Of a DNA stretch of 64,000 nt, positions 35,844-58,862 are shown one piece after another (the stretch's first letter is position 1; each line of letters begins with the position of its first letter). The notes beneath the pieces were generated by a model. It made no database searches. It saw nothing but the letters and a program-made list of their open reading frames with translations, and was not told where the DNA came from. Location: NCBI GenBank assembly GCA_035691305.1, contig DASSJF010000005.1, forward strand, positions 11,380 through 75,379, in the 5' to 3' direction. This DNA comes from a bacterium. GTDB lineage: Bacteria; Sysuimicrobiota; Sysuimicrobiia; Sysuimicrobiales; Segetimicrobiaceae. Position numbers and translations under genes: made by a program.

Positions 35844-36358
35844 CCTCATCACCCCTCCGAAGACTACACTCCGGAGACTACAACGGATGCGCAAGGCCAT
35901 TCCTTCCTGTTGAGAGTGCCCAAAAACGTGGCCGGCGGGCGCTCCGGGAGCGCCCGCCGTTAGACCGCCGGGCCTCGTTTCCCCCCGTTACGAGGCCCGG
36001 CCGAACAACGGTCTGCGTCGAGGCAGGTAGCGAAAACTGTTGCTGCGGACGGCGATTCGAAGAAACCCTATGAGCCCGACCGACAGCAGGGCCAACGGGA
36101 CTCCATATGCGATCGTCAACATCAGCCGGTCCGTGCTCCTTAACATCCCAGAGTTGAGTTTACTTGGCCCGGGCGGGAGCAGTAATCGGGCGATGGCCCT
36201 ATTGGGATCCAAAATCGGGTCTCCACCCGATGCCGGCGGGGGCCGGCGGCGGAGGGTCTCCACTTGCTCGCCGGCGTGGGCGATTATTCGGGGATTTGGG
36301 TGGGAATGAAGCGGTTAGAGGGTCACTGAGGCGCGACGGGGGTGGTGGCGAACTGGGC

Positions 36359-38173
36359 ATGCCGGTCCTTATGCTGGATTTCGCCGTAGGCATCCACGTC
36401 GCGATCGTGCTGCTGCTCCTCAGCAAGTACGTCGAGACGAGGTTGCCGTACGTGGTGTGGTGGACCGCCGGGATGGCCGCCCTGGCGGCCCGGTCGGCCA
36501 CCGAACTCACCCTGCTGTCCAACGGAGCGCCCGCGCCCTTCGCCCTCGTCCCGAGCATCCTCATCCTGGCCGGAGCCGGCTGCTTCCTCACCGGCTCCGT
36601 CGCACGGGACCCCAACACGCCCGGCAACATCCTCTTCGGAGCCGTCGGCTACGGCGGACTGCTCACCGCCGTCGCCGCGTTCTTCGTCCTCGGGCGGGGC
36701 CACGCCGACGTCGCGCGCGCGGTCGCCGGCATGGCCGCGGCGCTCGCGTTCGTCCTTGCGGGACGCAGCTATTACCAGGCGGAAGGCGCCGCCGATGACA
36801 CCGCGATTCGGACCATCTTCATCGCGCTCGTCGCGATCGGGGTCAATTTCGCCGGCTGGTCGTTCCTCCCGCGCACGACTTTCGACGCCGGGATCTCGGA
36901 GCTGCTCGGCGCACTGTGCGCGGCGACGTTCGGCGCAGGCGTGCAGCTCCGGTCGCTCGAGCGGCAGCGCGCGCTCGAAGTGATGAGCGCGATCAGCGCC
37001 GCGCTGCACCAGGCGAGCCACGTCGGCGAGATGCTCACAGACGTACTGCGCGCGACCGGCAAGATGGTGCAGGCGCACTCGGGCTGGGTGTTTCTCGAAC
37101 GCGGTGGGCGGTACGAGACCGCCGCGGCGTTTGGGCTGTCGGGACCGCTGGCGGACGGCGGCGGCGCCCTCCGCGACCTGGTCCCCGGCGGAGAACACGG
37201 CCGGTCCGCGCCCGCCGGATCCTGCCGCTGCCTCGAGATGCTGCGCGCCGGCCGGTTGCCGGCGCAGGGCGGCGTCGTGGACTGCGACCGGTTCGCCGAC
37301 GTCGGGGTGGCCCTCCGGCACGCGAGCGTGCCCCTGCGCACCGTGCGGACGCGGGGGGTGCTGAACCTCGTGCTCGTGCCCGGTCGGTTGTTTATGCGGC
37401 GGGAACTGGCGCTCGTGTCCGCGATCGCCACGCAGGTCAGTTTTGCGATCGACAAGGCCGAGCTGCTCGACGAGTTGCGCGACAAGGAGGCGGATCGGAC
37501 GGGGTTGATCCGGCGCCTCCTGAGCGCCCAGGAAGACGAACGCAAGCGCATCGCCCGGGAACTGCACGACGAAGCCGGCCAGTCGCTCGCCGGCCTGATG
37601 CTCGAACTGGAAGCGGCGCGCCTCGAGGACGCCCGCGGCACGGCCGTGACCCAGGAGACGCTCGCGCGCCTCAGGCGCCTCGCGGCGCGCACGGTGGAGT
37701 CCGTGCGGGCGCTGATCTACGACCTCCGGCCGGCCGTCCTCGACGACCTGGGGCTCGTGCCGGCGCTGCGGTGGTACACGCAGAGCCAGATCGCCGCCCG
37801 CGGCCTGGACGTGCGCCTGAGCGAGCGGCTCGGCAGCGAGCGGCTCGACGCGACGCTGGAGACGACGATCTTCCGCATCGCGCAGGAGGCGCTTTGGAAC
37901 GCCGTCAAACACGCCGCCGCGTCCCGCATCGACGTGGACCTCTTGCGAAAGGACGACCGTATCGTGCTTCGCGTGCGCGACGACGGGCGCGGAATCACCG
38001 CGGCGGCCGGCGCCCCGGCGCACCGGGGGCGGGTCGGCGTCGGACTCGGCGGCATGGTGGAGCGGGCCGCGGCCCTCGGCGGCACGGTCCAGGTGGCCGC
38101 GCGGCCGGAGGGCGGCACCGAGGTGCTCGCCGAATTTCCCGCCGCCGCGGTCCGCCGGGGACAAACCGCGTGA
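36359..38173 (+). CDS. sensor histidine kinase (membrane domain - GAF - HisKA_3 - HATPase_c; NarL/LuxR-partner type)
   Basis: Start at the internal MPVLMLD. About 6 TM helices, a GAF-like middle, RIARELHDEAGQSLAGL H-box and a GLGGMVERAAALGG G-box. Confidence 0.85.
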   Translation: MPVLMLDFAVGIHVAIVLLLLSKYVETRLPYVVWWTAGMAALAARSATELTLLSNGAPAPFALVPSILILAGAGCFLTGSVARDPNTPGNILFGAVGYGGLLTAVAAFFVLGRGHADVARAVAGMAAALAFVLAGRSYYQAEGAADDTAIRTIFIALVAIGVNFAGWSFLPRTTFDAGISELLGALCAATFGAGVQLRSLERQRALEVMSAISAALHQASHVGEMLTDVLRATGKMVQAHSGWVFLERGGRYETAAAFGLSGPLADGGGALRDLVPGGEHGRSAPAGSCRCLEMLRAGRLPAQGGVVDCDRFADVGVALRHASVPLRTVRTRGVLNLVLVPGRLFMRRELALVSAIATQVSFAIDKAELLDELRDKEADRTGLIRRLLSAQEDERKRIARELHDEAGQSLAGLMLELEAARLEDARGTAVTQETLARLRRLAARTVESVRALIYDLRPAVLDDLGLVPALRWYTQSQIAARGLDVRLSERLGSERLDATLETTIFRIAQEALWNAVKHAAASRIDVDLLRKDDRIVLRVRDDGRGITAAAGAPAHRGRVGVGLGGMVERAAALGGTVQVAARPEGGTEVLAEFPAAAVRRGQTA

Positions 38174-38856
38174 CGGACGCGGGCGCCGTGACCGGCGAGA
38201 GCCCCGGCAAGATAACGGTCATCCTCGCCGACGATCACGCCATCGTGCGGGAGGGCGTGAAGCGCATCCTGGCCGGCGAGCCGGACATCCAGGTGGTGGG
38301 CGAAGCGTCGGACGGGGCCGAGGCGGTCGCCCTCGCCAAGCAAGTACACCCAACGGTCGCGGTGCTCGACATCAGCATGCCTCGGCTCGACGGCATCGAG
38401 GCGACGCGGCAGATCCGCGACGCGGTGCCGGACACGCACACCATCGCGCTCACGATGCACGCCGACGACACCTACGTCTTCCAGCTCATCAAGGCCGGCT
38501 CGGCCGGCTGCGTGCTCAAGCACGATGCGGCGCCGAACTTGATCGAGGCGATCCGATCGGCCGCGCGCGGAGAGGCGTTCCTCTATCCGCAGGCGGCGAC
38601 CGCGGTCGCCGAGGACTACCTCAAGCGCGTCGAGCACGGCGAAAACCGCGAGACCTACGACGGCCTCACCGCCCGCGAAAAGGAGATTTTGACCCTGATC
38701 GCCCACGGCGCGACCAACCAGGAGATCGCAAAGCAGCTGTTCATCAGCGTCAAGACCGTGCAGACGCACCGCGCCCACATCTTGGAGAAGCTCGAGCTCC
38801 ACGACCGCACGCAGCTCGTGCGGTACGCGATCCGCAAGGGGCTCATCGAAGCGTAG
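38170..38856 (+). CDS. response regulator, LuxR/NarL family
   Basis: GTG overlaps the kinase stop (GTGA). Receiver domain (ILADDH...VLDISMP) plus a LuxR helix-turn-helix. The upstream part of the 646-aa track ORF is an antisense artefact. Confidence 0.9.
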   Translation: MTDAGAVTGESPGKITVILADDHAIVREGVKRILAGEPDIQVVGEASDGAEAVALAKQVHPTVAVLDISMPRLDGIEATRQIRDAVPDTHTIALTMHADDTYVFQLIKAGSAGCVLKHDAAPNLIEAIRSAARGEAFLYPQAATAVAEDYLKRVEHGENRETYDGLTAREKEILTLIAHGATNQEIAKQLFISVKTVQTHRAHILEKLELHDRTQLVRYAIRKGLIEA

Positions 38857-40979: not shown

Positions 40980-41669
40980 TCACTTCGGCAGGGTCTTCGC
41001 GACGTCGGAGTTTTGCGTGTAGAGACCGACCACTTCCCCCCACGCCAGGACGTGCGACTGCCCGGCCCGTGGGACATCGGCGGCAGTAAAATTCGCCGGC
41101 ACCGGCAGACGCGCGACGTTAAGCGCGTAGACCCGGAAGTGGTAGTGGTGCACGGCGGCGTCGTTCCACGGAGGGCACGGTCCGTCGTAGCCGGCACGGC
41201 CGTTGCCGTAGTCGTTGAGACCGCGCACGCCGTTGGGGGTCGGTCCGGCAGACTTGGCCGTGCCGTCCTTGGAATCCGCCCCCTCGGGCAGCGACGTGAC
41301 CGACGCCGGGATATCGACCAGCAGCCAATGATACCACGGCCGCCGCTTCATGGTGGCCGGGATGACTTTGCCTTCCTTGTCGGCGTCGGTAAGAACCGCG
41401 GGGACATCCGTATCGACGACCACGATGGCGTACGACGCGGTCCCGGACGGGCCGCGCGACCAAGAGATTGCCGGGCTCACGTTCTGTCCCGGCGCGGTGT
41501 GGCCCGTCGCGGCCGGGACGCAGAAGGCGTACCTCTGCGGGATGACGCCGCCCGCCCGGAAACTGTCCACCGTCACTGTGAGGGTCGCCTGAGCCTGCGC
41601 GGCCGGCGCCGAGGGCGCGGCGGCCAGCAAGACCGCGGTCGAGACCAACCACAGGATCGATCGCCTCAT
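40980..41669 (-). CDS. YbhB/YbcL-family phosphatidylethanolamine-binding protein (PEBP/Raf-kinase-inhibitor-like), secreted
   Basis: Start at the internal MRRSILWLVSTAVLLAAAPS (signal peptide), ATG 41669 with GGAGAGGTG SD. DGPCPPW...HHYHFRVYAL PEBP core. The upstream 188 codons of the track ORF are non-coding. Confidence 0.8.
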   Translation of the reverse strand: MRRSILWLVSTAVLLAAAPSAPAAQAQATLTVTVDSFRAGGVIPQRYAFCVPAATGHTAPGQNVSPAISWSRGPSGTASYAIVVVDTDVPAVLTDADKEGKVIPATMKRRPWYHWLLVDIPASVTSLPEGADSKDGTAKSAGPTPNGVRGLNDYGNGRAGYDGPCPPWNDAAVHHYHFRVYALNVARLPVPANFTAADVPRAGQSHVLAWGEVVGLYTQNSDVAKTLPK

Positions 41670-41771
41670 AAGCACCTCTCCAGGGGGCTCTGGGACTCGG
41701 GTTCGGTCCCCCGCGACCGGGATTCCTCCGTTCGTCCCCGCCGCTCCCGCGAATGGAACACCCGCGCCGCC

Positions 41772-41798
41772 GTTTACGCTTCTTAAGGCGGAGGGTAA
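41772..41798 (+). promoter_or_regulatory. sigma-B/sigma-F (general stress sigma) type promoter: GTTTAC - 15 nt - GGGTAA
   Basis: GTTTAC at 41772-41777 and GGGTAA at 41793-41798. This matches the GTTT-N15-GGGTAT consensus of SigB/SigF promoters. It lies 80-115 nt upstream of the STAS-domain gene. Confidence 0.45.
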
Positions 41799-41876
41799 AT
41801 ATCGGGAGGCTAAACAGCGGGTCTGGAGGTCCGTGCGGCGGGGGAAGGTCGGCGCGGATCGCTTTTCGGTCCGGCA

Positions 41877-42317
41877 GTGCTTTTCAACGACGCGGACGTC
41901 GAGAACAGCCTTATGAGAGCACAGGCTCGGGTCACGGTGCACCAACCGCCACGCGCCACCGTGGCGTGTGTGGAAGGCGATCTCGACCTCGTCAGTCTGC
42001 CGCAGGTCGAGCGTGAGCTGCGGGCAGCCGCGTCCGATGCGAAGGCGAACTCCCTCGTCGCCGTCGACGTCACGGGCGTGACGTACCTCAACAGCGCGGC
42101 GATCCGCCTGCTGTACGATCTCGCCGAGGACCTCCGCACGAGGCGGCGCCAGCTCCGAGTTGTGATGTCGTCGGACGCGCCGCTGCGCGCGCTGTTCCGG
42201 CGCCTTCGATTCGACACCGTCATACCCGTGCACGACACCGTCGACGAGGCGATCGCCGAAGCCGTCTCCGATTCGTCGGACACGGATGGGAGCGATCGTT
42301 CGCGCGCACCCGGCTAG
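41877..42317 (+). CDS. STAS-domain protein (anti-sigma factor antagonist, SpoIIAA/RsbV-like)
   Basis: GTG 41877 or ATG 41913 start. Conserved DLSGVTYLNSAAIRLL-type region (VDVTGVTYLNSAAIRLLYDL). The conserved Ser/Thr phosphorylation position lies in that region. Confidence 0.7.
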   Translation: MLFNDADVENSLMRAQARVTVHQPPRATVACVEGDLDLVSLPQVERELRAAASDAKANSLVAVDVTGVTYLNSAAIRLLYDLAEDLRTRRRQLRVVMSSDAPLRALFRRLRFDTVIPVHDTVDEAIAEAVSDSSDTDGSDRSRAPG

Positions 42318-42339
42318 ACACGAAGGAGGGCATGCGGAG

Positions 42340-42576
42340 ATGAGCGTTTCGATGAATGTTATCCCGTCGCTGATGCGGATTCACCGGCAGCTGCGGCTGC
42401 TCGACCGGGCCTACACCGACTCGGAGAGTAAGCAGCAAGTCCAGAACGCGGTAGAGGCGAAGCTCGATGAGCTTCACGCGATCCACGACCTTCTACCGAC
42501 GGACCTGCGGGACAAGAGCTGGATCTTTCTGATGCAGGGCTACAACAACTGGGGGAAGCTCTCCAAGTCGGCCTGA
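42340..42576 (+). CDS. small hypothetical protein (78 aa), locally low GC
   Basis: ATG with AAGGAGG SD 10 nt upstream. MSVSMNVIPSLMRIHRQLRLLDRAYTDSESKQQVQNAVEAKLDELHAI..., predicted helical. GC is visibly lower than its surroundings. Confidence 0.4.
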   Translation: MSVSMNVIPSLMRIHRQLRLLDRAYTDSESKQQVQNAVEAKLDELHAIHDLLPTDLRDKSWIFLMQGYNNWGKLSKSA

Positions 42577-42627
42577 GCCCGGGCGCGCGTTTGACCACGC
42601 CCCGCGCACGGGAAAACTTGTGGTGTC

Positions 42628-43005
42628 ATGCGGCGCTCGCACGCTACGCTCAGATGGAGCCTCGGGCCCGCGGCGGCGGTCGTGATGGCCTGGGCGGCTG
42701 CAGCCGGCGCGGCGCCGCTTTCCGTCAGGGTCGTCTCGGTGACCACGCCGGTGATGCGCGGCACGGAGGGCCGGCTCGTCGTGCGCACGGCACCCCACGC
42801 GCGGTGCGGCGCGTCTGTGCAGGCGCTGTCTGATCCCCACCGTACGATCGCGTCGTTGCCGCCGCACGCCGCGGGGTCGGACGGGCTCGTGAAGTTCAGC
42901 GTCCGCGTTCCCGATATCGCCAAGGCGGGTCCCTATCCCGTAACCGTCTCGTGCCGGCGCGGCGAGAAGGCCGCCGTCACGCACCTCCGCGTCACCGTCC
43001 AGTAA
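42628..43005 (+). CDS. hypothetical secreted protein
   Basis: 125 aa with signal peptide (LGPAAAVVMAWAAAAGAAP). No recognised motifs. Confidence 0.35.
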   Translation: MRRSHATLRWSLGPAAAVVMAWAAAAGAAPLSVRVVSVTTPVMRGTEGRLVVRTAPHARCGASVQALSDPHRTIASLPPHAAGSDGLVKFSVRVPDIAKAGPYPVTVSCRRGEKAAVTHLRVTVQ

Positions 43006-43046
43006 CCCGCAGGCGGTCCGGCGCCGCGAGTCGAAGGTCCGTCACC

Positions 43047-44585
43047 ATGCGGAGGCTCGGCGCGCTCGGGGCCGCGGCCGTGCTGCTGGCCGCTCTGGCG
43101 GCAGGCGTGCAGGCGGAGAGCGTCCACCGCGGCGGGACGCTGCGCGTGGGCCTCGACGCGGATCCGCCCAATCTCGATCCTCACCGGTCGACCGCCGCGG
43201 TCGATCGCCAAGTGTTCCAGGGTCTGTTCGCCAAGCTCGTCGACACCGACGAGTCGCTGCGGATCGTGCCGGATCTCGCCACGTCGTGGGCGGTGAGCGC
43301 CGACGGCCGCACGGTGACGCTGCACCTGCGCCAGGGCGTGGTGTTTCAGGACGGGACGCCGTTCAACGCGGAGGCGGTCCGCTACAACCTCGAGCGAATG
43401 CGCGATTCGAGGTTCCCGTCGGCGCGCCGCCTCGAGATCAGCCCGATTCAGAAGATTACGGTTCAGGACGCCGCCACCGTCGCCCTGACCCTCGAGCGGC
43501 CGTACAGTCCCCTGCTCTACGTGCTGACCGACCGCGCGGGGATGATGGTGTCGCCGGCGGCGGCGCAGCGGGAGGGGCTCAATTTCGCGCTCCACCCGGT
43601 CGGCGCCGGGGCCTTCACGTTCGTAGAGAAGGCGCCGCAAGACCACGTCACACTGCAGCGGAACTCGTCCTACTGGGCGAAGGGCCTCCCCTACCTCGAC
43701 CGCATCGTGTTTCGTCCGGTGATCGACGACAATGCCCGGGTGGCAAATTTGAAATCGGGCGACCTCGACATCATCAACACGGTGCCCCTGCCGCAGATCA
43801 AGGAACTGGCGCAGGCGTCGGCGCGCCCCGGGGCGGCCTACCGGCTCCTGCAGCGCGGGGCGTTTTCATGGGTCGCGATCCGGCTCAACATCACGAAGCC
43901 GCCCTTCGACAACAAGCTGCTGCGCCAGGCGCTCGACAACACGATCGACCGGGAGGCGCTCGCCGGCGTCGTCCTTCAAGGTGCGGCGTATCCGGCGTAC
44001 TCGTTCTTTCCGAACGGCACCCCGGGATACGACCCGTCCTGGCCGATTCCCGGCCGGAGCGTGGCGCGGGCCAAGGAGAAAGAACAGGCGGCCGGGCGTC
44101 CGGACGGATTCGAGTTCACGCTGCTCACGACCCCGGGCCAGCAGCAGCTATCCGTGGCCCAGGCCGTGCAGTCGATGGCCGCGGACGCGGGCATCCGGAT
44201 CAAGATCCAGGCGATCGAGTTCGGCACGCTGCTCGACACGCTCGGGCACCTGCGGCATCAGGCGGGACTCCTCGGATGGAGCGGCCGGCCCGACCCCGAC
44301 GGGGACATCTATTCCTTCCTGACGCAGGCCGGGCCCGACCAGCCGAACGACACCGGCTACACGAACCCGCGCGTAACCAGCCTCCTCGACGCCTCACGCC
44401 TCCTCGGCGACATGGCGCAGCGCCGGCGGGCGTACCGTGAAGTCCTCCAGATCGTAGCGGACGACATGCCCTACGTGTGGCTCTACTTCCCGAAGGAGTA
44501 CAAGCTGGTTTCGGCGCGCGTGCACGGCTTCGTCCACGTCCCGGACGGGATGATGCGGCTCGCACGCGCGTGGCTGTCACCCTAG
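43047..44585 (+). CDS. ABC transporter substrate-binding protein, family 5 (peptide/nickel, DppA/OppA-like), solitary
   Basis: Start at the internal MRRLGALGAAAVLLAALAAG signal peptide. SBP_bac_5 core (LDPH..., PVGAGAF, PYVWLYFPKEY). No adjacent permease or ATPase genes. Confidence 0.8.
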   Translation: MRRLGALGAAAVLLAALAAGVQAESVHRGGTLRVGLDADPPNLDPHRSTAAVDRQVFQGLFAKLVDTDESLRIVPDLATSWAVSADGRTVTLHLRQGVVFQDGTPFNAEAVRYNLERMRDSRFPSARRLEISPIQKITVQDAATVALTLERPYSPLLYVLTDRAGMMVSPAAAQREGLNFALHPVGAGAFTFVEKAPQDHVTLQRNSSYWAKGLPYLDRIVFRPVIDDNARVANLKSGDLDIINTVPLPQIKELAQASARPGAAYRLLQRGAFSWVAIRLNITKPPFDNKLLRQALDNTIDREALAGVVLQGAAYPAYSFFPNGTPGYDPSWPIPGRSVARAKEKEQAAGRPDGFEFTLLTTPGQQQLSVAQAVQSMAADAGIRIKIQAIEFGTLLDTLGHLRHQAGLLGWSGRPDPDGDIYSFLTQAGPDQPNDTGYTNPRVTSLLDASRLLGDMAQRRRAYREVLQIVADDMPYVWLYFPKEYKLVSARVHGFVHVPDGMMRLARAWLSP

Positions 44586-45756: not shown

Positions 45757-47694
45757 TTACGGGATCACGGGCGGGGGCGAACCTTGATCCGGCGGACCGG
45801 TCTGATTGGACGGCGGCGTCTGCGGCGCCGGTCCGGCGGGCGGCGCGGGCCCCTGGCTGACGACCAAGTCGACCGCCTCGTTCGGGGAGGCCTCGGCGCC
45901 GGCCGCCCGGCCCTGACCGATTACGACGCCCGCGGGAGTCCGATCGTCGTACGTGTAGCTGATGCGTCCCGTCCGGAAGCCGGCGGAGCGCAGCGCGGAC
46001 TCCGCCTGCGCGAGCGATGCGCCGGTTACGTTCGGGACGACCGTGGTGTCCGGAGACGGCGCCGGCGCGCCCAGCGGCGTGCCGGAGGGACTCGACGGCT
46101 GATCGGCGCCTCGGCTCACCACGATGTTGATCAATGACTTGGCCCCCAGATGGTCGCCTGGATTCGCGGACTGCGACTGGACCATGCCGGACGGCACGTG
46201 GTCGTCGTGTACGTAGCTCGTGCTGCCGAGCCGCAGTCCGGCGGCCCGCAACTTCCGCGCGGCCGCGTCGGCTGAGACGCCGCGGACATCGGGCACGACC
46301 CCCGACCCCTGGCTGACCACCACGTTGAGCGCCGCGCCCTGCGCGAGCGCGGTTCCCGGGGGCGGATCCTGCGCCAGGATCACGTCCGGGGCCACGGTCC
46401 CGTTCTGTCTGCCCGTGACGGCAAGCCTGATCTTGTTGGACGCCGCGACGTCCTGCGCGGCCGCCAGCGTCCGGCCCACGAGAGCCGGCGCCCGGATGGC
46501 GGCCGCGGTTTGCGCCGCCGGACCGCGACGGTTCGCGGACTGGTAGCCCTGGTAAGCCGCGAAGGCGAAGAACCATAAGCCGACCAACCCGACGAGGACG
46601 ATCGTAAGCTGCGGCGCGATCGCCTGGCGACGGTGCCGCGACGACAAGATCGGCGTTCGTGCGGTGTCCGACAACACGCGCCCGCGACCGAGCGTCGCGA
46701 GACGGGCCGTCGCGTCGCGGGCGATCGCGCCGTCCCGCTCGGCCCCCGCCGCGCGCGGCTGCCCGCCGGCCCGAATCGGCAGCGGGACGGTCTTCGACGC
46801 GTCACGGCCGAGCCGCGCGTAGATCCGCCGGAGGTTCGACGCGAGCTCGGCCGCGCACACCTGGCGCTCCTCCGGCGATTTGACCAGCAGGCGGCGCACC
46901 AGCGCCACGGTGGCTTCGGATAGACCCGGACGGATCCAGTGCAGGTCGTATGGCGGCTCGTGTATGTGCCGCAGCGCCATAGCGACCGGGGTCTCGGCTT
47001 CCTCGAACGGCAGACGTCCGGCCAGCATCTCGTACAGGACGACGCCGAGCGAGTACTGGTCCGACGCCGGGCCCGCCTGCTGCCCGGCCGCCTGCTCGGG
47101 CGAGATGTACTGCGTGGACCCGGGCACGATCCCGGCGCGTGTGTGTGACGTCGAATCGAGCGAACGGGCGATGCCGAAGTCCGCGACCTTGACGTGCTCG
47201 TCCGCCGTCAGGAGGATGTTGTGCGGCTTGATGTCGCGGTGGACGACGCGGCGGGAGTGGGCGTACGCAAGCGCGTCGGCCACTTCTGCCGCGATGCGGA
47301 CCGCGGTTCCCTCCGGAAGCTGCTCCCGCCGGCTCACCAACTCGCGAAGCGTCCCGCCGTCCAAGAACTCCATCGCGATGTAGGGCGTCGAGTCGGCCTC
47401 GCCGTGCCCGTACACTCGCACGATGCGTGGGTGCACGAGCGCGCTCGCCGCCTCCGCCTCCCGGCGAAACCGTTGCCGGAATTCCTCGTCGCGCGCGAGG
47501 TGCTCGGCCGGCACTTTTACGGCGCAGGGACGGTTGTGGGCGCGGTCCCAGGCCCGGTAGACCGTGGCCATGCCGCCGGTGCCGATGACCTCGCGCAACT
47601 CGAACCGTCGGTCGAGCACGCGCGGCTCCCGGCCGCAGGCGCCCGCCCCGGGGAGCGGCCCATCGAACGCCGGCTCGTTGTTGTGGATCGCCAT
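45757..47694 (-). CDS. Ser/Thr protein kinase with three extracellular PASTA domains (PknB-like)
   Basis: 645 aa. Kinase subdomains (GTGGMATVYRA, HRDIKPHNILL, DFGIA), a TM helix, then three PASTA repeats (VVPDVRG..., VVPNVTG...). Confidence 0.9.
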   Translation of the reverse strand: MAIHNNEPAFDGPLPGAGACGREPRVLDRRFELREVIGTGGMATVYRAWDRAHNRPCAVKVPAEHLARDEEFRQRFRREAEAASALVHPRIVRVYGHGEADSTPYIAMEFLDGGTLRELVSRREQLPEGTAVRIAAEVADALAYAHSRRVVHRDIKPHNILLTADEHVKVADFGIARSLDSTSHTRAGIVPGSTQYISPEQAAGQQAGPASDQYSLGVVLYEMLAGRLPFEEAETPVAMALRHIHEPPYDLHWIRPGLSEATVALVRRLLVKSPEERQVCAAELASNLRRIYARLGRDASKTVPLPIRAGGQPRAAGAERDGAIARDATARLATLGRGRVLSDTARTPILSSRHRRQAIAPQLTIVLVGLVGLWFFAFAAYQGYQSANRRGPAAQTAAAIRAPALVGRTLAAAQDVAASNKIRLAVTGRQNGTVAPDVILAQDPPPGTALAQGAALNVVVSQGSGVVPDVRGVSADAAARKLRAAGLRLGSTSYVHDDHVPSGMVQSQSANPGDHLGAKSLINIVVSRGADQPSSPSGTPLGAPAPSPDTTVVPNVTGASLAQAESALRSAGFRTGRISYTYDDRTPAGVVIGQGRAAGAEASPNEAVDLVVSQGPAPPAGPAPQTPPSNQTGPPDQGSPPPVIP

Positions 47695-48053: not shown

Positions 48054-48725
48054 TTACGCTTCCGTGACGATGCCGCGCCGGATCGCGTAGCGGACGAGAT
48101 CGGTCTGGTTGTGCAAGTCCAGTTTGCGCATGAGGTTGGCGCGGTGCACTTCGGCGGTGCGGGGGCTGATGCCGAGGCGCTGGCCGATCGCGCGGTGGCC
48201 GTGTCCTTCCGCGGCGAGGTGAAGTACCTCGCGCTCCCGATTCGTGAGCGTAGCGTACCCATCCGACGGCCCGGGATCGGCAGGGGCGGAGTCGGCGTAC
48301 ACCGCGATCGCACGGCTGGACAGCGAAGGGCTGAGATAACGATGGCCGGCCGCCGCCGCACGCACGGCCTCGACGAGGTGCGCCGACTGCGACGCCTTGA
48401 GCACGTACGCCGCGGCACCGTTGCGAAGCGCTTCCAGCACGTACGGCTCACTCGCGTGCATCGAGAGGATGACCACCTGCGTGTCGGGGTACTCTTTGCG
48501 GACACGGCGTGTGACCTCGAGCCCGGTGATGCCGGGCATCATGAGGTCCGCGATCAGCACGCGGGGCCTCGACTGCGCGACGAGGTCAACGGCTTCGAGG
48601 CCGTCTCCGGCCTCGCCGAGGATTGAAAAATCCGGTTCGGCCTCCAAGACGGCCCGGAGGCCCTGACGGACGACGTGGTGGTCATCCGCGAGGACGATCG
48701 TGACAGGCGTCAGTGCGCTTGTCAC
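48054..48725 (-). CDS. response regulator, LuxR/NarL family
   Basis: 223 aa. Receiver domain (VLADDH...LIADLMMP) plus LuxR helix-turn-helix. Start overlaps the upstream kinase stop. Confidence 0.9.
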   Translation of the reverse strand: MTSALTPVTIVLADDHHVVRQGLRAVLEAEPDFSILGEAGDGLEAVDLVAQSRPRVLIADLMMPGITGLEVTRRVRKEYPDTQVVILSMHASEPYVLEALRNGAAAYVLKASQSAHLVEAVRAAAAGHRYLSPSLSSRAIAVYADSAPADPGPSDGYATLTNREREVLHLAAEGHGHRAIGQRLGISPRTAEVHRANLMRKLDLHNQTDLVRYAIRRGIVTEA

Positions 48726-50929
48726 GGCACCTCGGCGGTCGTGGTAGGCAGCGTGGCGGTGATCCGTGTCCCGGCACCCCGGCCGGTTTCAACGGTCAGG
48801 CGCCCGCCCACGAGCAACGCCCGTTCCTTCATGCCGACAAGACCGTTCGATTCCACGCGACCGGGGTCGAAGCCGCGGCCGCCGTCCTCGACCTCAACCG
48901 ACACCGCACCCCCCACCGCCCAGACGCGCAGCGTCACCTCGGAGACGCCGGCGTGCCGCGCGACGTTGGTCAAAGCTTCCTGTGCGATGCGGTAGGCCGC
49001 CGTCTCGACGCCGGCGCCGAACCGCCGGTTCAGCCCAGATTGAGTGAAGGCGACGCCGACGCCGGTCTGTGCCTGGTACCGCTCGACATGCCACTGTAGC
49101 GCGGGCAGCAGCCCGAGATCGTCGAGCACCGCCGGACGCAGCTGCAGCGAGATGTCGTGCACGCGCATCATCAGGTCCGACACGACGTCGCGTGCGTTCT
49201 GCAAGCTCTCCTCCACGCGCCTCTCGGCCTGCACCGGCAGCGCGTCGAGGGTCAGCTTCAGTCCGGTCAGCGCCTGGCCGATCTCATCGTGTAGCTCGCG
49301 CCCGATCCGCCGGCGCTCCGTTTCCTGAATCGCCACAAGGTACGGGATCGCCTCGGAGACCGACGGCGTCGCCTGCGCCGGCGCGTCCACAGACCGCGTC
49401 TCCTCATCGTCCGAGAGAGGCGCCGACGTCCCGCCGCCCACCGGGAGCCGCGATTTCCACGCCTCCCACGCCGGGTTGCCGGCGGGAGCCGCCGCGAGGG
49501 CGGGCTGCGGCCGCATCGACGCGCCGAAGAGTTTGACGAACAACGGCACGGCGTCCGTGGTGGCGATGATCTGCCCGAGCGCCTGCACGATCTTCGGGTC
49601 GTAGTCCCGACCGGCCCGCGCCTGTATCCGCGTGAGCGCGCCTTCGGGCGTGAACGCCGGCCGGTGTGGCCGCGCCGAGCAGAGGTCGTCGTAGGAGTCG
49701 ACGACACGAATGATCCGTGCGCCGACCGGGATCCGATCGTCTTTCAGGCCGTCGGGATACCCGCGTCCGTCGTAGTCTTCGTGGTGGGAGCGTACGCACT
49801 GCGCGACGCGGCCCATGCCGGGCAGCCGCTCGATCACCGCGGCGCCGAGCGCGGGATGCCGTTTTATCAACGCTTCCTGCGCGTCGGACAGCACGTCCGG
49901 CGTCGCTTCGAGGTCGCGCCGCAGCAGCATCATGCCGAGATCGTGCAACTTCGCCGCGAGCCAGACGAGTTCGATTTCAGACTCGGACAGGCCCATCCGC
50001 CGCGCGAGGCGCTCCGCCCACCAGGCGACACGTTCCGACTGCTCGTGCATGAACGGAGACAGCCCCTCGTTCGTCTCGACGAGGGACGAGAGTATCGTCG
50101 TGATCTGCCGCCGTTGCCTGCCGAGCATCCGCGTCTGACCCCAGAAGATCACCAAGACGGAGATCAGCAGCGGGATGACCCAGAACGGGTGGATGGTCGC
50201 GAGCAGCCCGGCCACCGCGCCGAGCAGCAGCGTGACGGCGTACCCGGCGGAGCTCTCTCGCAAAATCTGCAGCCAAAGCTCGAAGGCACCCGTCCGCCTG
50301 CGCAGCGCCGACCACGTCGACACGAGCCAGGTATTGACCAGCATATGGACGAGGCCCGCACCTATCGCGGCGAGCGACAACCTGGCCTGAGCGGGCAGCG
50401 ATCCCAAGTCCGCCCACAGACGGTGGAATAGGATGATGACGAGACTCCACGTCACCACGTACTGCGCCACGTTGAAGATAATCGCGGGAGCGCTGAGCTG
50501 ACGGCGACGCCGGCTGACGAATTGCGCGACGACGGTGCCGGCCGTCGTGGGAATGAGCGCGAGATGCACCGGGAAGCTCAGCAGGATGGCGAACGATGCG
50601 CCGCTGCCGAGTGCGAGGAAGACCTTCCGACCGAGCGGAAGGTGATAGATGCCGCCGAGCGCGACGGCAATCGTGGCGGCGATCAGCAGGGCCGCCACGC
50701 CGGCCGGTGCGCCGGCGGCAACGGTCGGGAGCGCGCCGCGCGCCACCAACGGCGGCGTGAGGTATAGGCCCGCGGCGGCCGCGACCGCCGCGAGGACCAC
50801 GAAGCCTTCGAAGGAACGGCTGGGCGCGGAAGCTCCGGTGAAGAAGCCCCTCGCGCTCTGCGCGTTGGCGGCACCGACCGCCGGTTCGTTACGTGAAGAC
50901 CGGCGACGTAGGTTGCGGATCCGGCTCAT
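48722..50929 (-). CDS. multidomain sensor: 7TM membrane domain - HD-GYP phosphodiesterase domain - HisKA_3/HATPase histidine kinase
   Basis: 735 aa. About 7 N-terminal TM helices. HD-GYP signature (KLHDLGM ... HHEDYDGRGYPDGL). Then RIGRELHDEIGQALTGL H-box and IAQEALTNVARHAG...VEDGGRGFDP ATPase motifs. Confidence 0.8.
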   Translation of the reverse strand: MSRIRNLRRRSSRNEPAVGAANAQSARGFFTGASAPSRSFEGFVVLAAVAAAAGLYLTPPLVARGALPTVAAGAPAGVAALLIAATIAVALGGIYHLPLGRKVFLALGSGASFAILLSFPVHLALIPTTAGTVVAQFVSRRRRQLSAPAIIFNVAQYVVTWSLVIILFHRLWADLGSLPAQARLSLAAIGAGLVHMLVNTWLVSTWSALRRRTGAFELWLQILRESSAGYAVTLLLGAVAGLLATIHPFWVIPLLISVLVIFWGQTRMLGRQRRQITTILSSLVETNEGLSPFMHEQSERVAWWAERLARRMGLSESEIELVWLAAKLHDLGMMLLRRDLEATPDVLSDAQEALIKRHPALGAAVIERLPGMGRVAQCVRSHHEDYDGRGYPDGLKDDRIPVGARIIRVVDSYDDLCSARPHRPAFTPEGALTRIQARAGRDYDPKIVQALGQIIATTDAVPLFVKLFGASMRPQPALAAAPAGNPAWEAWKSRLPVGGGTSAPLSDDEETRSVDAPAQATPSVSEAIPYLVAIQETERRRIGRELHDEIGQALTGLKLTLDALPVQAERRVEESLQNARDVVSDLMMRVHDISLQLRPAVLDDLGLLPALQWHVERYQAQTGVGVAFTQSGLNRRFGAGVETAAYRIAQEALTNVARHAGVSEVTLRVWAVGGAVSVEVEDGGRGFDPGRVESNGLVGMKERALLVGGRLTVETGRGAGTRITATLPTTTAEVP

Positions 50930-51157
50930 CGACTACGCAGCCCCCCCACTTGGGGGTTCTGCCCGCCGCGGAGGCCCCGTAGACTGCCGCGGCACCGCTG
51001 TGGCGCGGCTCCCGCCCAAACTCACGGTACCGGCCCTCGTGCCGGTGTTGCTGGCGGGTCAATCGGGCGCGAATCTGAGGGGCGTCAGGGTACGCACCCC
51101 GATGGGGGTGGGTGCCGGCCGCGGCGCACTACAGAATCGATGTCAAGCGCGCAGCGA

Positions 51158-52432: not shown

Positions 52433-52467
52433 CGTTTGAGCGATCCGCCCCGCCCGTTTGAGTAATC
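52433..52467 (+). promoter_or_regulatory. tandem direct repeat CCGCC(T)CGTTTGAG(C/T)(G/A)ATC x2 (22-bp spacing) upstream of the orphan response regulator gene; candidate regulator binding sites
   Basis: cgtttgagcgatc (52433-52445) and cgtttgagtaatc (52455-52467). Downstream lie a perfect 10-bp palindrome CACGTACGTG (52507-52516) and a hairpin CGCCGCG-N9-CGCGGCG (52521-52543). Confidence 0.35.
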
Positions 52468-52562
52468 GGCGGGAGATTTGGCGCAAGTGCGACGGCGGTC
52501 TGTCCGCACGTACGTGTGTACGCCGCGTCTGCGAAACGCGGCGCGTGGGCACACCTCACCTG

Positions 52563-53276
52563 ATGGACCATGCCAAGTTCGGCCTGCATGCGCTAAAGCC
52601 GCGCCTTCGGGCCGTGCCGCGCCCGGATCCGATCCGGGTGTTTCTGATCGATCCGCAAGTGCTGCTCCGCCACGGCCTCCGGCTGCTGTTCGGTTCGGAG
52701 GGCGACATCGACATCGTCGGCGAGGCCGGGGCGGCGGCGGGGGCGATCGACGATGTCGCGGCCGCAAAGCCCGACGTCGTCCTGATGGACATTCCGGCGC
52801 CGGCCGCGGACGGGATCGGCGCCATTCGCGCGATCAAAGCCCGCTGCCCGAACGCGCAGGTGCTGGTGCTGACCGCGCAGTCGGACCAGGAAGTGTTTCG
52901 CGAGGCCGCGGCCGCGGGCGCCGTCGGCTACGTGTTGAAAGACATCTCCGCCACGAACCTGTCCAACGCGATTCGCGCCGTGCAGTCGGGCGCCACGATG
53001 ATCAACCCGGTGTTGGCCCGGCAGATGGTCGAGGGTCTCGCCCGGGACGAGGCCGCCGCGGCAGTCGGCGCGCCGCGGCGGCCGCACCGGCTCACCCCGC
53101 GCGAAATCAACATCCTCGTCGAAGTCGCCCTCGGCATGAGCGACAAGGAGATCGCGGTCAAACTGGCCGTGTCCGAGTCGCGCGTCAAGAACTGCCTGCG
53201 CGCGCTGTACAGCCGCCTCGACCTCCGCAACCGCGCGCACGCCGCGGCCTTCGCCGTTCGGAGGGGCCTGGTCTAA
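52563..53276 (+). CDS. response regulator, LuxR/NarL family (orphan; no kinase adjacent)
   Basis: Start at the internal MDHAKF. Receiver (VFLIDPQ...VLMDIPAP) plus LuxR helix-turn-helix (LTPREINILVEVALGMSDKEIA). Confidence 0.85.
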   Translation: MDHAKFGLHALKPRLRAVPRPDPIRVFLIDPQVLLRHGLRLLFGSEGDIDIVGEAGAAAGAIDDVAAAKPDVVLMDIPAPAADGIGAIRAIKARCPNAQVLVLTAQSDQEVFREAAAAGAVGYVLKDISATNLSNAIRAVQSGATMINPVLARQMVEGLARDEAAAAVGAPRRPHRLTPREINILVEVALGMSDKEIAVKLAVSESRVKNCLRALYSRLDLRNRAHAAAFAVRRGLV

Positions 53277-56473: not shown

Positions 56474-57748
56474 ATGTCCACCGCCCCGGAACGGGAAACG
56501 ATCGCCGCCGGCGGCCGTACGGTCGCGATTTCCAACCCGCGGAAAATCCTTTTTCCCGGTAGAGGGTACACCAAGCTGGACTTGGTGCGGTACTTCCTGG
56601 CCGTCGCCGGCGGCGCGCTGCGCGCGGCCGGCGGCCGGCCGAACATGCTGGTGCGCTACCCGAACGGCGTCGGCGGCGAGTTCTTCTTCCAGAAGCGCGC
56701 CCCCCGGTCGCGGCCGGATTGGATCGAGGTCGTCTCTCTCCGCTTTCCCTCCGGCCGTTCCGCCGACGAGGTGGTGCCGCGCGACGCCGCGGCGCTCGCG
56801 TGGATGGCCAACCTCGCCTGTCTCGAGCTCCACCCGCATCCGGTGCGGGCCGAGGACCTCGAGCACCCCGACGAGCTGCGTATCGATCTCGACCCGATGC
56901 CGGGCGTCGGCTGGCCGCAGGTCCGCGACGTGGCCCGGGTGGTGCGCGGCGCGCTGGAGGACTTCGGCATGACCGGCTGGCCGAAGACGTCCGGCGGCCG
57001 CGGGATGCACGTGCTCGTGCGGCTCGAGCCCCGCTGGACCTTCGACGAGGTCCGCCGCGCCGCCCTGGCCCTGGCCCGCGACGTCGAGCGCCGCGCGCCC
57101 TCGCTCGCGACCAGCAAGTGGTGGAAGGAAGAGCGCCACGGCGTCTTCATCGACTACAACCAGAACGCCAAAGACCGCACGGTCGCCGCGGCGTACTCCG
57201 TGCGGCCCACCGCCGATGCCCGCGTCTCCGCGCCGTTGTCGTGGGCCGATGTCGACGGCTGCGATCCGGGCGAGTTCACGCTGGCCACGATGCCGCGGCG
57301 CTTCGCCGCAGTCGGCGACCCGCACGCCGGCATCGACGAGTCGCCATGCCCGCTCTCCGCCCTCCTTGAGCTGTCCGCCCGCCACGAGCGCGACGGGCTC
57401 GGCGACGCGCCGTGGCCCCCGCACTATCGCAAGCAGGCCGGGGAGCCCGTCCGCGCGCAGCCATCCCGCCGCCGCGCGCCGGTGTTCCCGCTCATCGAGA
57501 TCGCGCGAGCGTATCGCAAGGACGACGCCGCCGCGGGGCTCGACCGCTGGCGGGCGCGCCATCCCGGCGCCGCGGCGTATCTTGCGCCCGACGACATTCT
57601 CGTCGACGCGATGCGGGGCCGCTCGACCACGTGGACGCGCATCCGGCTGAATTTGAGACACGTGCCGGAAACACTGCGCCCGGAGCACGAGCCCCCTGAT
57701 CCCGACGAAGTCCCGGCGTGGCCGGGGCGCCCGCCGGCGCCGCGCTAG
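56474..57748 (+). CDS. non-homologous end-joining DNA polymerase (LigD polymerase/primase domain protein) with C-terminal extension
   Basis: 424 aa. LigD-Pol/PrimPol-type core ([15 protein letters not shown]..., GRGMHV) of about 300 aa, plus an extra tail of about 120 aa. Confidence 0.75.
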
Positions 57749-57764
57749 ACACCCGCGGCCCCGC

Positions 57765-58862
57765 CTAACGTCCGCGGGCGCCGAACACCTTCTCCAGCTC
57801 GAACGGCGGCGCGACCTCGAGCTGATCGTACCGGCACTCCGCCGGCCGCTTGTCGGACCGCCAGCGCAGAAACAGGGCCGCGTGCCGGAACCGTCGGCCC
57901 TGCAGGTGATCGTACTTGACCTCGCACACGCGCTCGACGCGCACCGGCTCCCAGGACAGATCCTTGCCGGCGCTCCACCGGCTCTGCCCGCCGGGCATGC
58001 GCACGAACTCTGCCGGGTCCGGGTTCGCCCACTCGCGCCACGGATGCTGCGCGAGGGCCTCCCGGCGCAGCGGCGCGAGCTCCTCGGCAAGCCGCCGGCG
58101 CGTCGCCATCGGAAACGCGGACGTGACGCCGACGTGGTGCAGCGCTCCGCTGTCGTCGTAGAGGCCCAGCAGCAGCGAGCCGACCGCGCCGACGCCGCTC
58201 TTGTGCCAGCGGAAGCCCGCCACGACGCAGTCCGCGGTCCGGGCGTGCTTGACCTTGACCATCGCCCGCTTGCCCGGCTGATAGGTCCCCCGCTCCGGCT
58301 TGGCGACGACGCCGTCGAGACCCGCCCCCTCGAACTCGCGCAGCCACACGGCCGCCGTCTCGCGATCGCGTGTGACCGGCGTGAGGTAGATCGGCCGCGC
58401 CGCGGCGCGGAGGAGCCGCTCGAGCTGCGCGCGGCGATCCGCCTGCGGCGCCGTTCGGATGTCGCGGCCGCCGGCCGCGAGCGCGTCAAACGCCACGAAC
58501 GCCGCGGGCGTGACCGTCGCCAGCATGGCGACGCGGGATGCAGCCGGATGCAGCCGCAGCTGCAGCGCCTCGAAATCCAGTCCGCGGACCGTCACGATGA
58601 CGATTTCGCCGTCGAGCACGCACCCCGGGCCCAGTTGGGCGAGAAATGCCTCGCGCAGCTCCGGAAAGTACCGGTCGAGGGGCCGCAGATCGCGGCTCTG
58701 GATGAAGACCTCGTCGGCACCGCGGAAGACGAGGGCGCGAAAGCCGTCCCACTTGGGCTCGTACAGCCATCCGGACCCATCGGGCAGCGTCCCGGCGGAC
58801 GCGGCCAGCATCGGCTCGACCGGCGGCGCGATCGGAAACGCGGAAGGGTTGGGGACATTCAC
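57765..58862 (-). CDS. ATP-dependent DNA ligase (LigD ligase domain protein)
   Basis: 365 aa. EPKWDGFR adenylation motif I (KxDG) and an OB-fold C-terminus. Convergent with the Pol gene, ends 17 nt apart. Confidence 0.85.

Follow-up and report, generated by a model that had tools for sequence, protein, structure and literature searches.

What controls a solitary anti-sigma-factor antagonist gene in an uncultured soil bacterium, and which partners might its product have? The question is raised by a 64,000-nucleotide (nt) stretch of a Sysuimicrobiota genome (contig DASSJF010000005.1 of assembly GCA_035691305.1, positions 11,380 to 75,379), here called the window, whose guanine-plus-cytosine (GC) content is 70.9%. 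Within it, a gene for a STAS-only protein stands divergent from a PEBP/YbhB-family gene. The intergenic region between these two genes is 243 nt long and contains the motif GTTTAC-N15-GGGTAA, hereafter P1. The STAS gene is followed by an open reading frame (ORF) for a small protein, by a second motif of similar form (P2), and by a gene for a protein with a signal-peptide-like N-terminus. The explanation of the whole locus that appears best, and that we hold with slightly more belief than doubt, is that a group-3 general-stress sigma factor uses P1, that the STAS and small-protein genes form one operon behind it, and that P2 is a promoter of the same class.

The conserved element upstream of the STAS gene

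The P1 motif reported at 41772-41798 by the initial annotation was confirmed in the sequence. Homologs of the locus were found in uncultured soil metagenomes and in metagenome-assembled genomes (MAGs) labelled only 'bacterium'. Assemblies with the locus include GCA_035307565.1, GCA_035945995.1, GCA_054639575.1 and GCA_035945255.1, as well as the one that contains locus tag VFL28_00785. The orthologous loci (given L numbers below) provided 15 distinct versions of the STAS upstream region, which were aligned with the motif as anchor. In this alignment, the pairwise identity was 0.90 for the -35 hexamer and 0.92 for the 8-nt -10 block; outside these elements it was 0.44 for the spacer, and 0.37 and 0.40 for the 20-nt flanks on the upstream and the downstream side, respectively. 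P1 was the sole conserved island in the 15 intergenic regions. The counts per position were G14 T15 T15 T14 A15 C12 for the -35 element, and G10 G15 G15 T15 A15 A14 A15 T15 for the -10 block. The GGTA of the -10 element was invariant (15/15), and the G in front of it was kept in 10 of the 15 and replaced by A or C in three clades. Among the variants were GTTTAT-N15-GGGTAT (L010), GTTAAT-N13-GGGTAAAT (L012), CTTTAC-N15-GGGTAAAT (L018), and GTTTAG-N15-GGGTAAAT (L022). The spacer of 15 nt in the window ranged from 13 to 15 nt across the orthologs. Promoter spacers vary by 1-2 nt, as that of P1 does.

The distance from the -10 element to the ATG of the STAS gene was 13 nt in L022, 19 nt in L010, and up to 114-115 nt in other orthologs. 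The PEBP gene has the opposite orientation in L003 and L004, and the motif is nonetheless located in front of the STAS gene there. Because the motif tracks the gene while the leader length varies, P1 behaves like a promoter of the STAS gene. The leader itself appears to be dispensable, since its length varies from 13 to 115 nt, its predicted fold is only marginally stable (z-score -1.97), and it has no Rfam match. The Rfam search of the promoter and operon region gave no credible match, but one sub-threshold antisense match to Chlorobi-1 inside the STAS gene; no match reached the gathering threshold anywhere in the window. An RNA element in the leader was considered and rejected, given the lack of an Rfam match, the marginal fold, and the missing leader in L010 and L022. 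In these two loci (2548-2575 in L010; about 9534-9575 in L022), the STAS mRNA may be leaderless or nearly so. No recognisable Shine-Dalgarno sequence precedes the STAS gene in any ortholog (41900-41915 in the window). A GGAAC(A) block was also present in most of the orthologous regions, either 12 nt from the -35 element (the clade of the window) or 18-19 nt from it (the clade of L001, L003, L012 and L015).

The promoters of the SigB/SigF class have been described in several bacteria. The consensus of the Bacillus subtilis SigB promoter, GTTTAA-N12-14-GGG(A/T)A(A/T), resembles P1, and in the -10 element of the Streptomyces SigB family the three Gs and the A at position 5 are nearly invariant (PMC8346170). 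The consensus of Mycobacterium smegmatis SigF, GTTT-N14-19-GGGTA, fits P1, including its spacer; a GTTT-N15-GGGTA motif lies upstream of MSMEG_6541, an anti-sigma factor antagonist of the same species (PMC4694148). The -12 element GGTAA, which is critical for recognition by the group-3 SigF of Synechocystis, equals the core of the P1 -10 element, whereas that SigF has TAGGC at -32 in place of GTTTA as the upstream element (PMC2532724). In P1, GTTTAC carries the GTTT of the class (GTTTaa or GTTT), with GTTTA kept in 14-15 of the 15 orthologs; and GGGTAA agrees with GGG(T/A)A(T/A). Since conservation across the orthologs falls on the class-defining positions (GTTTA and GGGTA), P1 can be assigned to the SigB/SigF class, in line with the first reading of the motif. 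These comparisons support the view that P1 behaves like a functional promoter of this class, and they considerably strengthen the first interpretation of the locus, which as a whole is supported in part.

P2 sits in the gap that separates the small ORF from the ATG of the next gene, about 0.8 kilobases (kb) downstream of P1. It is kept in the orthologous loci that retain the downstream gene for the 125-residue protein. The versions found there are GTTTAG-N15-GGGAAAAAT in L010; GTTTAG followed by GGGCAAAAT in L005, L014 and L022, by GGGGATAAT in L012, and by GGGGAGAAT in L003; and GTTTCA followed by GGGGAAAAT in L024. The downstream gene occurs in some of the orthologous loci and is absent from L001, L015 and L032. 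P2 is absent from L001 and L015 as well, and in L007 and L008, where the gene has been lost, a relic of P2 survives. The pattern GTTTN{15,17}GGGHA has two matches in the whole window, which are P1 and P2. A total of 257 kb of DNA of this lineage and its relatives contained 15 matches to the relaxed pattern, of which 13 lie at P1 or P2. The presence of two conserved motifs of one class on the same strand, each directly before a start codon, is the strongest internal support for the promoter assignment. P2 would yield an almost leaderless mRNA, with a start expected at about 42622-42625. The coordinates of all the features are collected in Table 1.

Table 1. Features of the STAS locus in the window (positions are those of the window)
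Feature	Position	Strand	Basis or remark
PEBP/YbhB-family gene	40983-41669	-	Pfam PBP 5e-37; divergent from STAS gene
Conserved GGAAC block	41755..41759	+	12 nt 5' of P1 -35 element
P1 -35 element GTTTAC	41772..41777	+	Sequence and conservation in orthologs
P1 -10 element GGGTAA (41793-41798), conserved block GGGTAAAT	41793..41800	+	
Predicted 5' leader of STAS mRNA	41805..41912	+	Transcript would start near 41805-41808
STAS-only protein gene, 134 residues	41913..42317	+	Pfam STAS; stop codon TAG at 42315-42317
Shine-Dalgarno sequence AAGGAGG of small ORF	42323..42329	+	Ends 10 nt before ATG at 42340
Small helical protein gene, 78 residues	42340..42576	+	Rare family without characterised members
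P2 motif GTTTGA-N15-GGGAAA	42589..42615	+	Ends 12 nt before next ATG (42628)
Gene for 125-residue protein with signal-peptide-like N-terminus	42628..43005	+	Downstream of P2; weak NPCBM_assoc match only

The STAS protein and the small protein

The product of the STAS gene is a single-domain protein with 57 homolog clusters. It matched PF01740 (E=1.3e-12; 47.9 bits, cut-off 22.6) and PF13466 (STAS_2; 37.4 bits, cut-off 29.2). An upstream GTG at 41877 had been annotated as its start; this was replaced by the ATG at 41913, as the N-terminus MRAQARVTV of the window protein occurs as MRAQAKVTV or a close variant in all the orthologs. The mean column identity among the orthologs was 78%. A profile built from 20 orthologs and searched against the PDB identified TM1442 (E=1e-6), the M. 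paratuberculosis antagonist 4qtp, and M. tuberculosis RsfB. The AlphaFold2 model of the protein had a predicted local distance difference test (pLDDT) score of 85.7. Its top Foldseek matches were 4qtp, RsfB (8ih8, with UsfX), RsbV (6m36, with RsbW), TM1442 (1vc1), and SpoIIAA (1tid), with E values of 6.5e-8 to 2e-6 and query-normalised template-modelling scores of 0.65-0.74.

The sequence YLNSAAI, which includes Ser61, was invariant in the 20 orthologs. Ser61 aligned to the serines of the TM1442 motif YMDSAG and the RsfB motif FLGSVG, and was located at the N-terminus of a helix (residues 61-76) in the AlphaFold2 model. By reference to Ser58 of SpoIIAA, we take this to be the canonical phospho-acceptor position; Ser61 is a putative phospho-acceptor. 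The Pfam domains, the profile matches in the PDB, the predicted fold, and the conserved serine all agree with the annotated SpoIIAA/RsbV-like identity. By sequence and model, the protein is a divergent member of the SpoIIAA/RsbV class of anti-sigma-factor antagonists.

The ORF for 78 residues with a perfect AAGGAGG Shine-Dalgarno sequence was found downstream of the STAS gene as described before. Its homologs formed 40 clusters, which are 68-100% identical and all 77-80 residues long, with a mean column identity of 80%. The substitutions relative to the window copy lie mostly at the third codon position, such as 10, 10 and 32 at positions 1, 2 and 3. This pattern marks the small ORF as a genuine gene on which purifying selection acts. 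Wherever a locus of the lineage includes enough flanking sequence, the small ORF lies directly 3' of the STAS gene, with a gap of 4-23 nt. Because of this constant arrangement, the two genes are almost certainly co-transcribed. An exhaustive profile search of 1.84 billion representative sequences returned just 22 proteins, so the family appears to be rare; and a genome scan with the family alignment found it in five species only. Neither Pfam nor NCBIfam contains a family for the protein. Its model (pLDDT 74) shows a helical hairpin and, after it, shorter helices. The fold search with this model returned nothing below E=1, with the best PDB match at E=1.6. Among PDB sequences, there was a weak match to the N-terminal D1 helical hairpin of flagellin, with E=0.008 over the whole sequence and E=0.077 for the best domain. 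It covers residues ~15-54 of the family profile (RxQxRxLNxA...AE..L.E), with the loop at the same place. The likeness to flagellin is probably fortuitous.

More distant members of the family, with 30-45% identity, include proteins from two MAGs labelled Bacillota. In these two 'Bacillota bacterium' lineages, the small gene is preceded by an ORF-free intergenic region of about 590 nt (2401-2995 in L016 and 2455-2998 in L017; L025 and L026 carry the same regions). A block containing TAGAAT and other stretches are conserved between the two, and the region may be a long 5' untranslated region or an RNA element. In one distant subfamily, the small gene is preceded by a gene of the metallo-beta-lactamase fold and followed by a micro-ORF of 35-44 residues (5247-5381 in L027; 5310-5417 in L030), a conserved setting unlike that with the STAS gene.

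Proposed mechanism, partner genes and rival explanations

In the proposed mechanism, a group-3 sigma factor of the SigB/SigF class would initiate transcription at P1 (41772-41800), with a start near 41805-41808, and P1 would drive the bicistronic operon of the STAS and small-protein genes. The unphosphorylated STAS protein would bind an RsbW-type anti-sigma kinase encoded elsewhere, by which the sigma factor would be freed. Phosphorylation of Ser61 by the kinase would then turn the STAS protein off and reset the switch. These binding and phosphorylation steps are modelled on the protein family. A stress-sigma promoter before the antagonist gene would create positive feedback, as in the sigB operon of B. 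subtilis. The small protein, predicted to be a cytoplasmic helical hairpin with a strong ribosome-binding site of its own, is most likely part of the same stress response, in which it may be a partner that binds the STAS protein. P2 would drive the adjacent gene, probably for a secreted protein, and the locus would thus hold two members of one putative regulon.

Several findings weigh against this explanation. The count of the P1 motif alone is not significant: GTTTN{14,18}GGGTA had one match on both strands of the 64 kb, 0.26 matches were expected by chance, and 23 of 100 shuffled windows contained at least one. The spacer of P1 is 1 nt over the B. subtilis range of N12-14 (PMC8346170). The STAS protein scored 48.6 bits (E=6.3e-13) against the NCBIfam model TIGR00377 (ant_ant_sig), just under the cut-off of 53.45, and its motif is NSAA where the canonical one is DS(S/A)G. 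The distant members of the small-protein family have no STAS gene in the six contexts covered and no SigB-type promoter in front. As they stand alone in this manner, the link between the STAS protein and the small protein seems to be lineage-specific. The partner genes count on the same side. The Pfam scans covered almost all the coding ORFs of the window, together with precomputed annotations. The window and the orthologous loci yielded neither a Sigma70 protein nor a stand-alone HATPase_c_2 (RsbW-type) kinase; a PP2C/SpoIIE phosphatase was found neither in the Pfam scans of the window nor in the orthologous loci.

The other searches for partners gave a similar picture. In tblastn searches of the window and part of the loci with B. 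subtilis SigB, RsbW and SpoIIAB, only a weak match to a histidine kinase was obtained, and about 3 kb beyond the window contained nothing relevant. The statement of the initial annotation that no RsbW-like kinase or sigma gene is present in the window was upheld by the Pfam scans, the annotations and tblastn. The locus does not have the adjacent kinase and sigma genes, or the nearby PP2C/SpoIIE gene, of a canonical partner-switching operon. As the searches of the window and the orthologous loci gave no sigma factor, RsbW-type kinase or PP2C phosphatase, the STAS gene is regarded as an orphan antagonist gene. What the Pfam scans of the window did identify were metabolic genes, transporters, a PASTA Ser/Thr kinase, and three HisKA_3/LuxR two-component systems.

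Other readings of the P1 element are less attractive. It might be the promoter of a different sigma factor, either the housekeeping one (TTTACG-N17-TAAATA) or one of the extracytoplasmic function (ECF) type (GGAAC...CGTT), which we consider fairly improbable. TTTACG and TAAATA, 17 nt apart, do have a loose likeness to TTGACA and TATAAT, and the -10 region of P2 can be read as nAnAAT in several orthologs. However, the would-be -10 element lacks the final T in nearly all the orthologs (TAAATA, then C), and a sigma-70 model leaves the invariant GG(G) before TA unexplained; the housekeeping promoter was rejected, as a sigma-70 consensus scan of 41500-43200 found nothing. For an ECF factor, GGAAC-N17/18-CGTT in the clade of L001, L003, L012 and L015 resembles a promoter overlapping the -35 element, but in the window and its clade GGAAC is just 11 nt from CGTT, which is too short. 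The idea that the hexamers are not a promoter at all, and instead form the inverted-repeat arms (GTTTAC and GTAAAT) of an operator for a dimeric regulator such as one of several LuxR-type response regulators in the neighbourhood, is very doubtful. GTTTAC and GTAAA(T) are indeed almost reverse complements, the motif of L015 matches the minus strand too, and a HisKA_3/LuxR two-component system is syntenic upstream. Yet the distance between the arms differs by 1-2 nt among the orthologs, and dimeric operators rarely tolerate variable spacing of their arms. Moreover, where one arm has changed (GTTTAT, GTTAAT, GTTTAG, CTTTAC), the other carries no matching change; a CC that would be the counterpart of the invariant GG is missing; and P2 shares the GTTT...GGGnA pattern while being non-palindromic.

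The other rivals concern the module as a whole. The STAS protein and the small protein might constitute a self-contained module without a kinase, in which the small protein is a non-kinase anti-sigma factor or an output protein; this is unlikely. In its favour, the two genes are neighbours in all loci of the lineage that have sufficient flanking sequence, their products show comparable conservation (mean column identity of 78% in the STAS protein, 80% in the small protein), and no kinase gene is nearby. There is also a precedent in Pseudomonas aeruginosa, where the STAS-only protein HsbA (PA3347) is partnered by FlgM, a small helical non-kinase anti-sigma factor (PMC8256260). But none of 23 members of the small-protein family matched FlgM or another anti-sigma family of Pfam at E<=1, the small protein has no fold match, and the invariance of Ser61 suggests that a kinase is encoded somewhere in the genome. 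The family's distant members occur without the STAS gene, and adjacency within a narrow lineage may be inherited synteny. That the small ORF came recently from a foreign source and is functionally unconnected to the STAS gene is barely credible. Its GC content of 58.6% is clearly lower than the 70.9% of the window, and none of 1546 in-frame 237-nt gene windows was as low; this part of the initial annotation stands. The GC content at first codon positions was 0.58, and at second positions 0.342, compared with a gene mean of 0.526. At third positions it was 0.835 against 0.877 +/- 0.032, within the native range (181 of the 1546 windows were as low or lower), so the lower codon usage that had also been claimed did not hold. 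As the third positions are native and the deficit lies at the first two, the GC and codon profile of 42340..42576 points to amino-acid composition as the cause of the low GC content, and not to foreign DNA. The orthologs show the same GC pattern, and the same position is occupied in every locus of the lineage. Foreign origin was rejected on the grounds of the native third positions and the conserved synteny.

Other genes of the neighbourhood were also noted. A PASTA-domain Ser/Thr kinase is encoded at 45757-47694 on the minus strand, two to three genes downstream of the STAS operon. It is conserved in relatives (7606-10050 in L001; 9421-11958 in L032), and in some of them a HSP20 gene adjoins. 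This enzyme is a possible alternative kinase for the serine of the STAS protein; the M. tuberculosis kinase PknD reportedly phosphorylates a STAS homolog. The window also contains two HisKA_3 kinases and three LuxR/GerE-type regulators (36164-38856, 48054-50932 and 52440-53276), and most of the related genomes keep the first HisKA_3/LuxR pair in synteny with the STAS locus. One sensor kinase (48722-50932, minus strand) has an unusual combination of HD_5 (HD-GYP-like), HisKA_3 and HATPase_c domains, and adjoins a LuxR-type regulator at 48054-48788. Farther away, the convergent genes for a LigD primase-polymerase and an ATP-dependent DNA ligase, of the non-homologous end-joining type, are located at 56474-58862 and are syntenic in L032 and L033.

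Relation to known partner-switching systems

The rsbV-rsbW-sigB arrangement of B. subtilis likewise has a stress-sigma promoter before an antagonist gene, and the antagonist is a single-domain STAS protein with a serine starting helix 2. In contrast, the STAS gene of the window is followed by the gene for the small protein and not by rsbW and a sigma gene, the STAS motif is NSAA and not DS(S/T)G, and the promoter spacer is 1 nt longer. To our knowledge, no counterpart of the small protein has been described in the mycobacterial SigF systems. The mycobacterial system (RsfA, RsfB and MSMEG_6541) has dispersed antagonists. The antagonists 4qtp and RsfB (8ih8) are the best matches of the STAS protein both in fold and in sequence, and mycobacteria share a high GC content with the bacterium of the window. 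The sequence identity to them is only 17-23%, however, and the lineage studied here is one of soil, whose small protein has distant relatives labelled Bacillota. The module had been described as possibly incomplete or unusual by the initial annotation. The word unusual overstates the case, since antagonists encoded outside the sigma operon occur in mycobacteria, such as MSMEG_6541 (PMC4694148).

Among the non-canonical STAS-only proteins, SypA, BtrV and RbaV are further examples in addition to HsbA, and the partner of such proteins may differ from a neighbouring RsbW. Unlike the P. aeruginosa system, the small protein of the window has no detectable similarity to FlgM, and no gene for a kinase/phosphatase of the HsbR or SypE type is adjacent.

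In summary, a group-3 general-stress sigma factor acting at P1 and P2 is the explanation that we prefer for this locus. Otherwise the module is ordinary: actinobacteria and firmicutes are already known to have orphan antagonist genes of this type. If the assignment is true, the SigB/SigF promoter grammar (GTTT...GGGTA) would be recognisable from sequence and conservation in an uncultured high-GC soil lineage, and P1 and P2 would provide two anchors for predicting its stress regulon. The small protein might also be a novel type of partner to a STAS antagonist, either an output protein or an anti-sigma factor other than a kinase, which the antagonist would sequester or release, in a minimal, lineage-specific module that is independent of a kinase or uses one in trans, and might represent a new regulator family; this is rather unlikely on the present comparisons. 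As a rare and strongly conserved protein encoded beside an antagonist, it is a candidate for a new component of partner switching.

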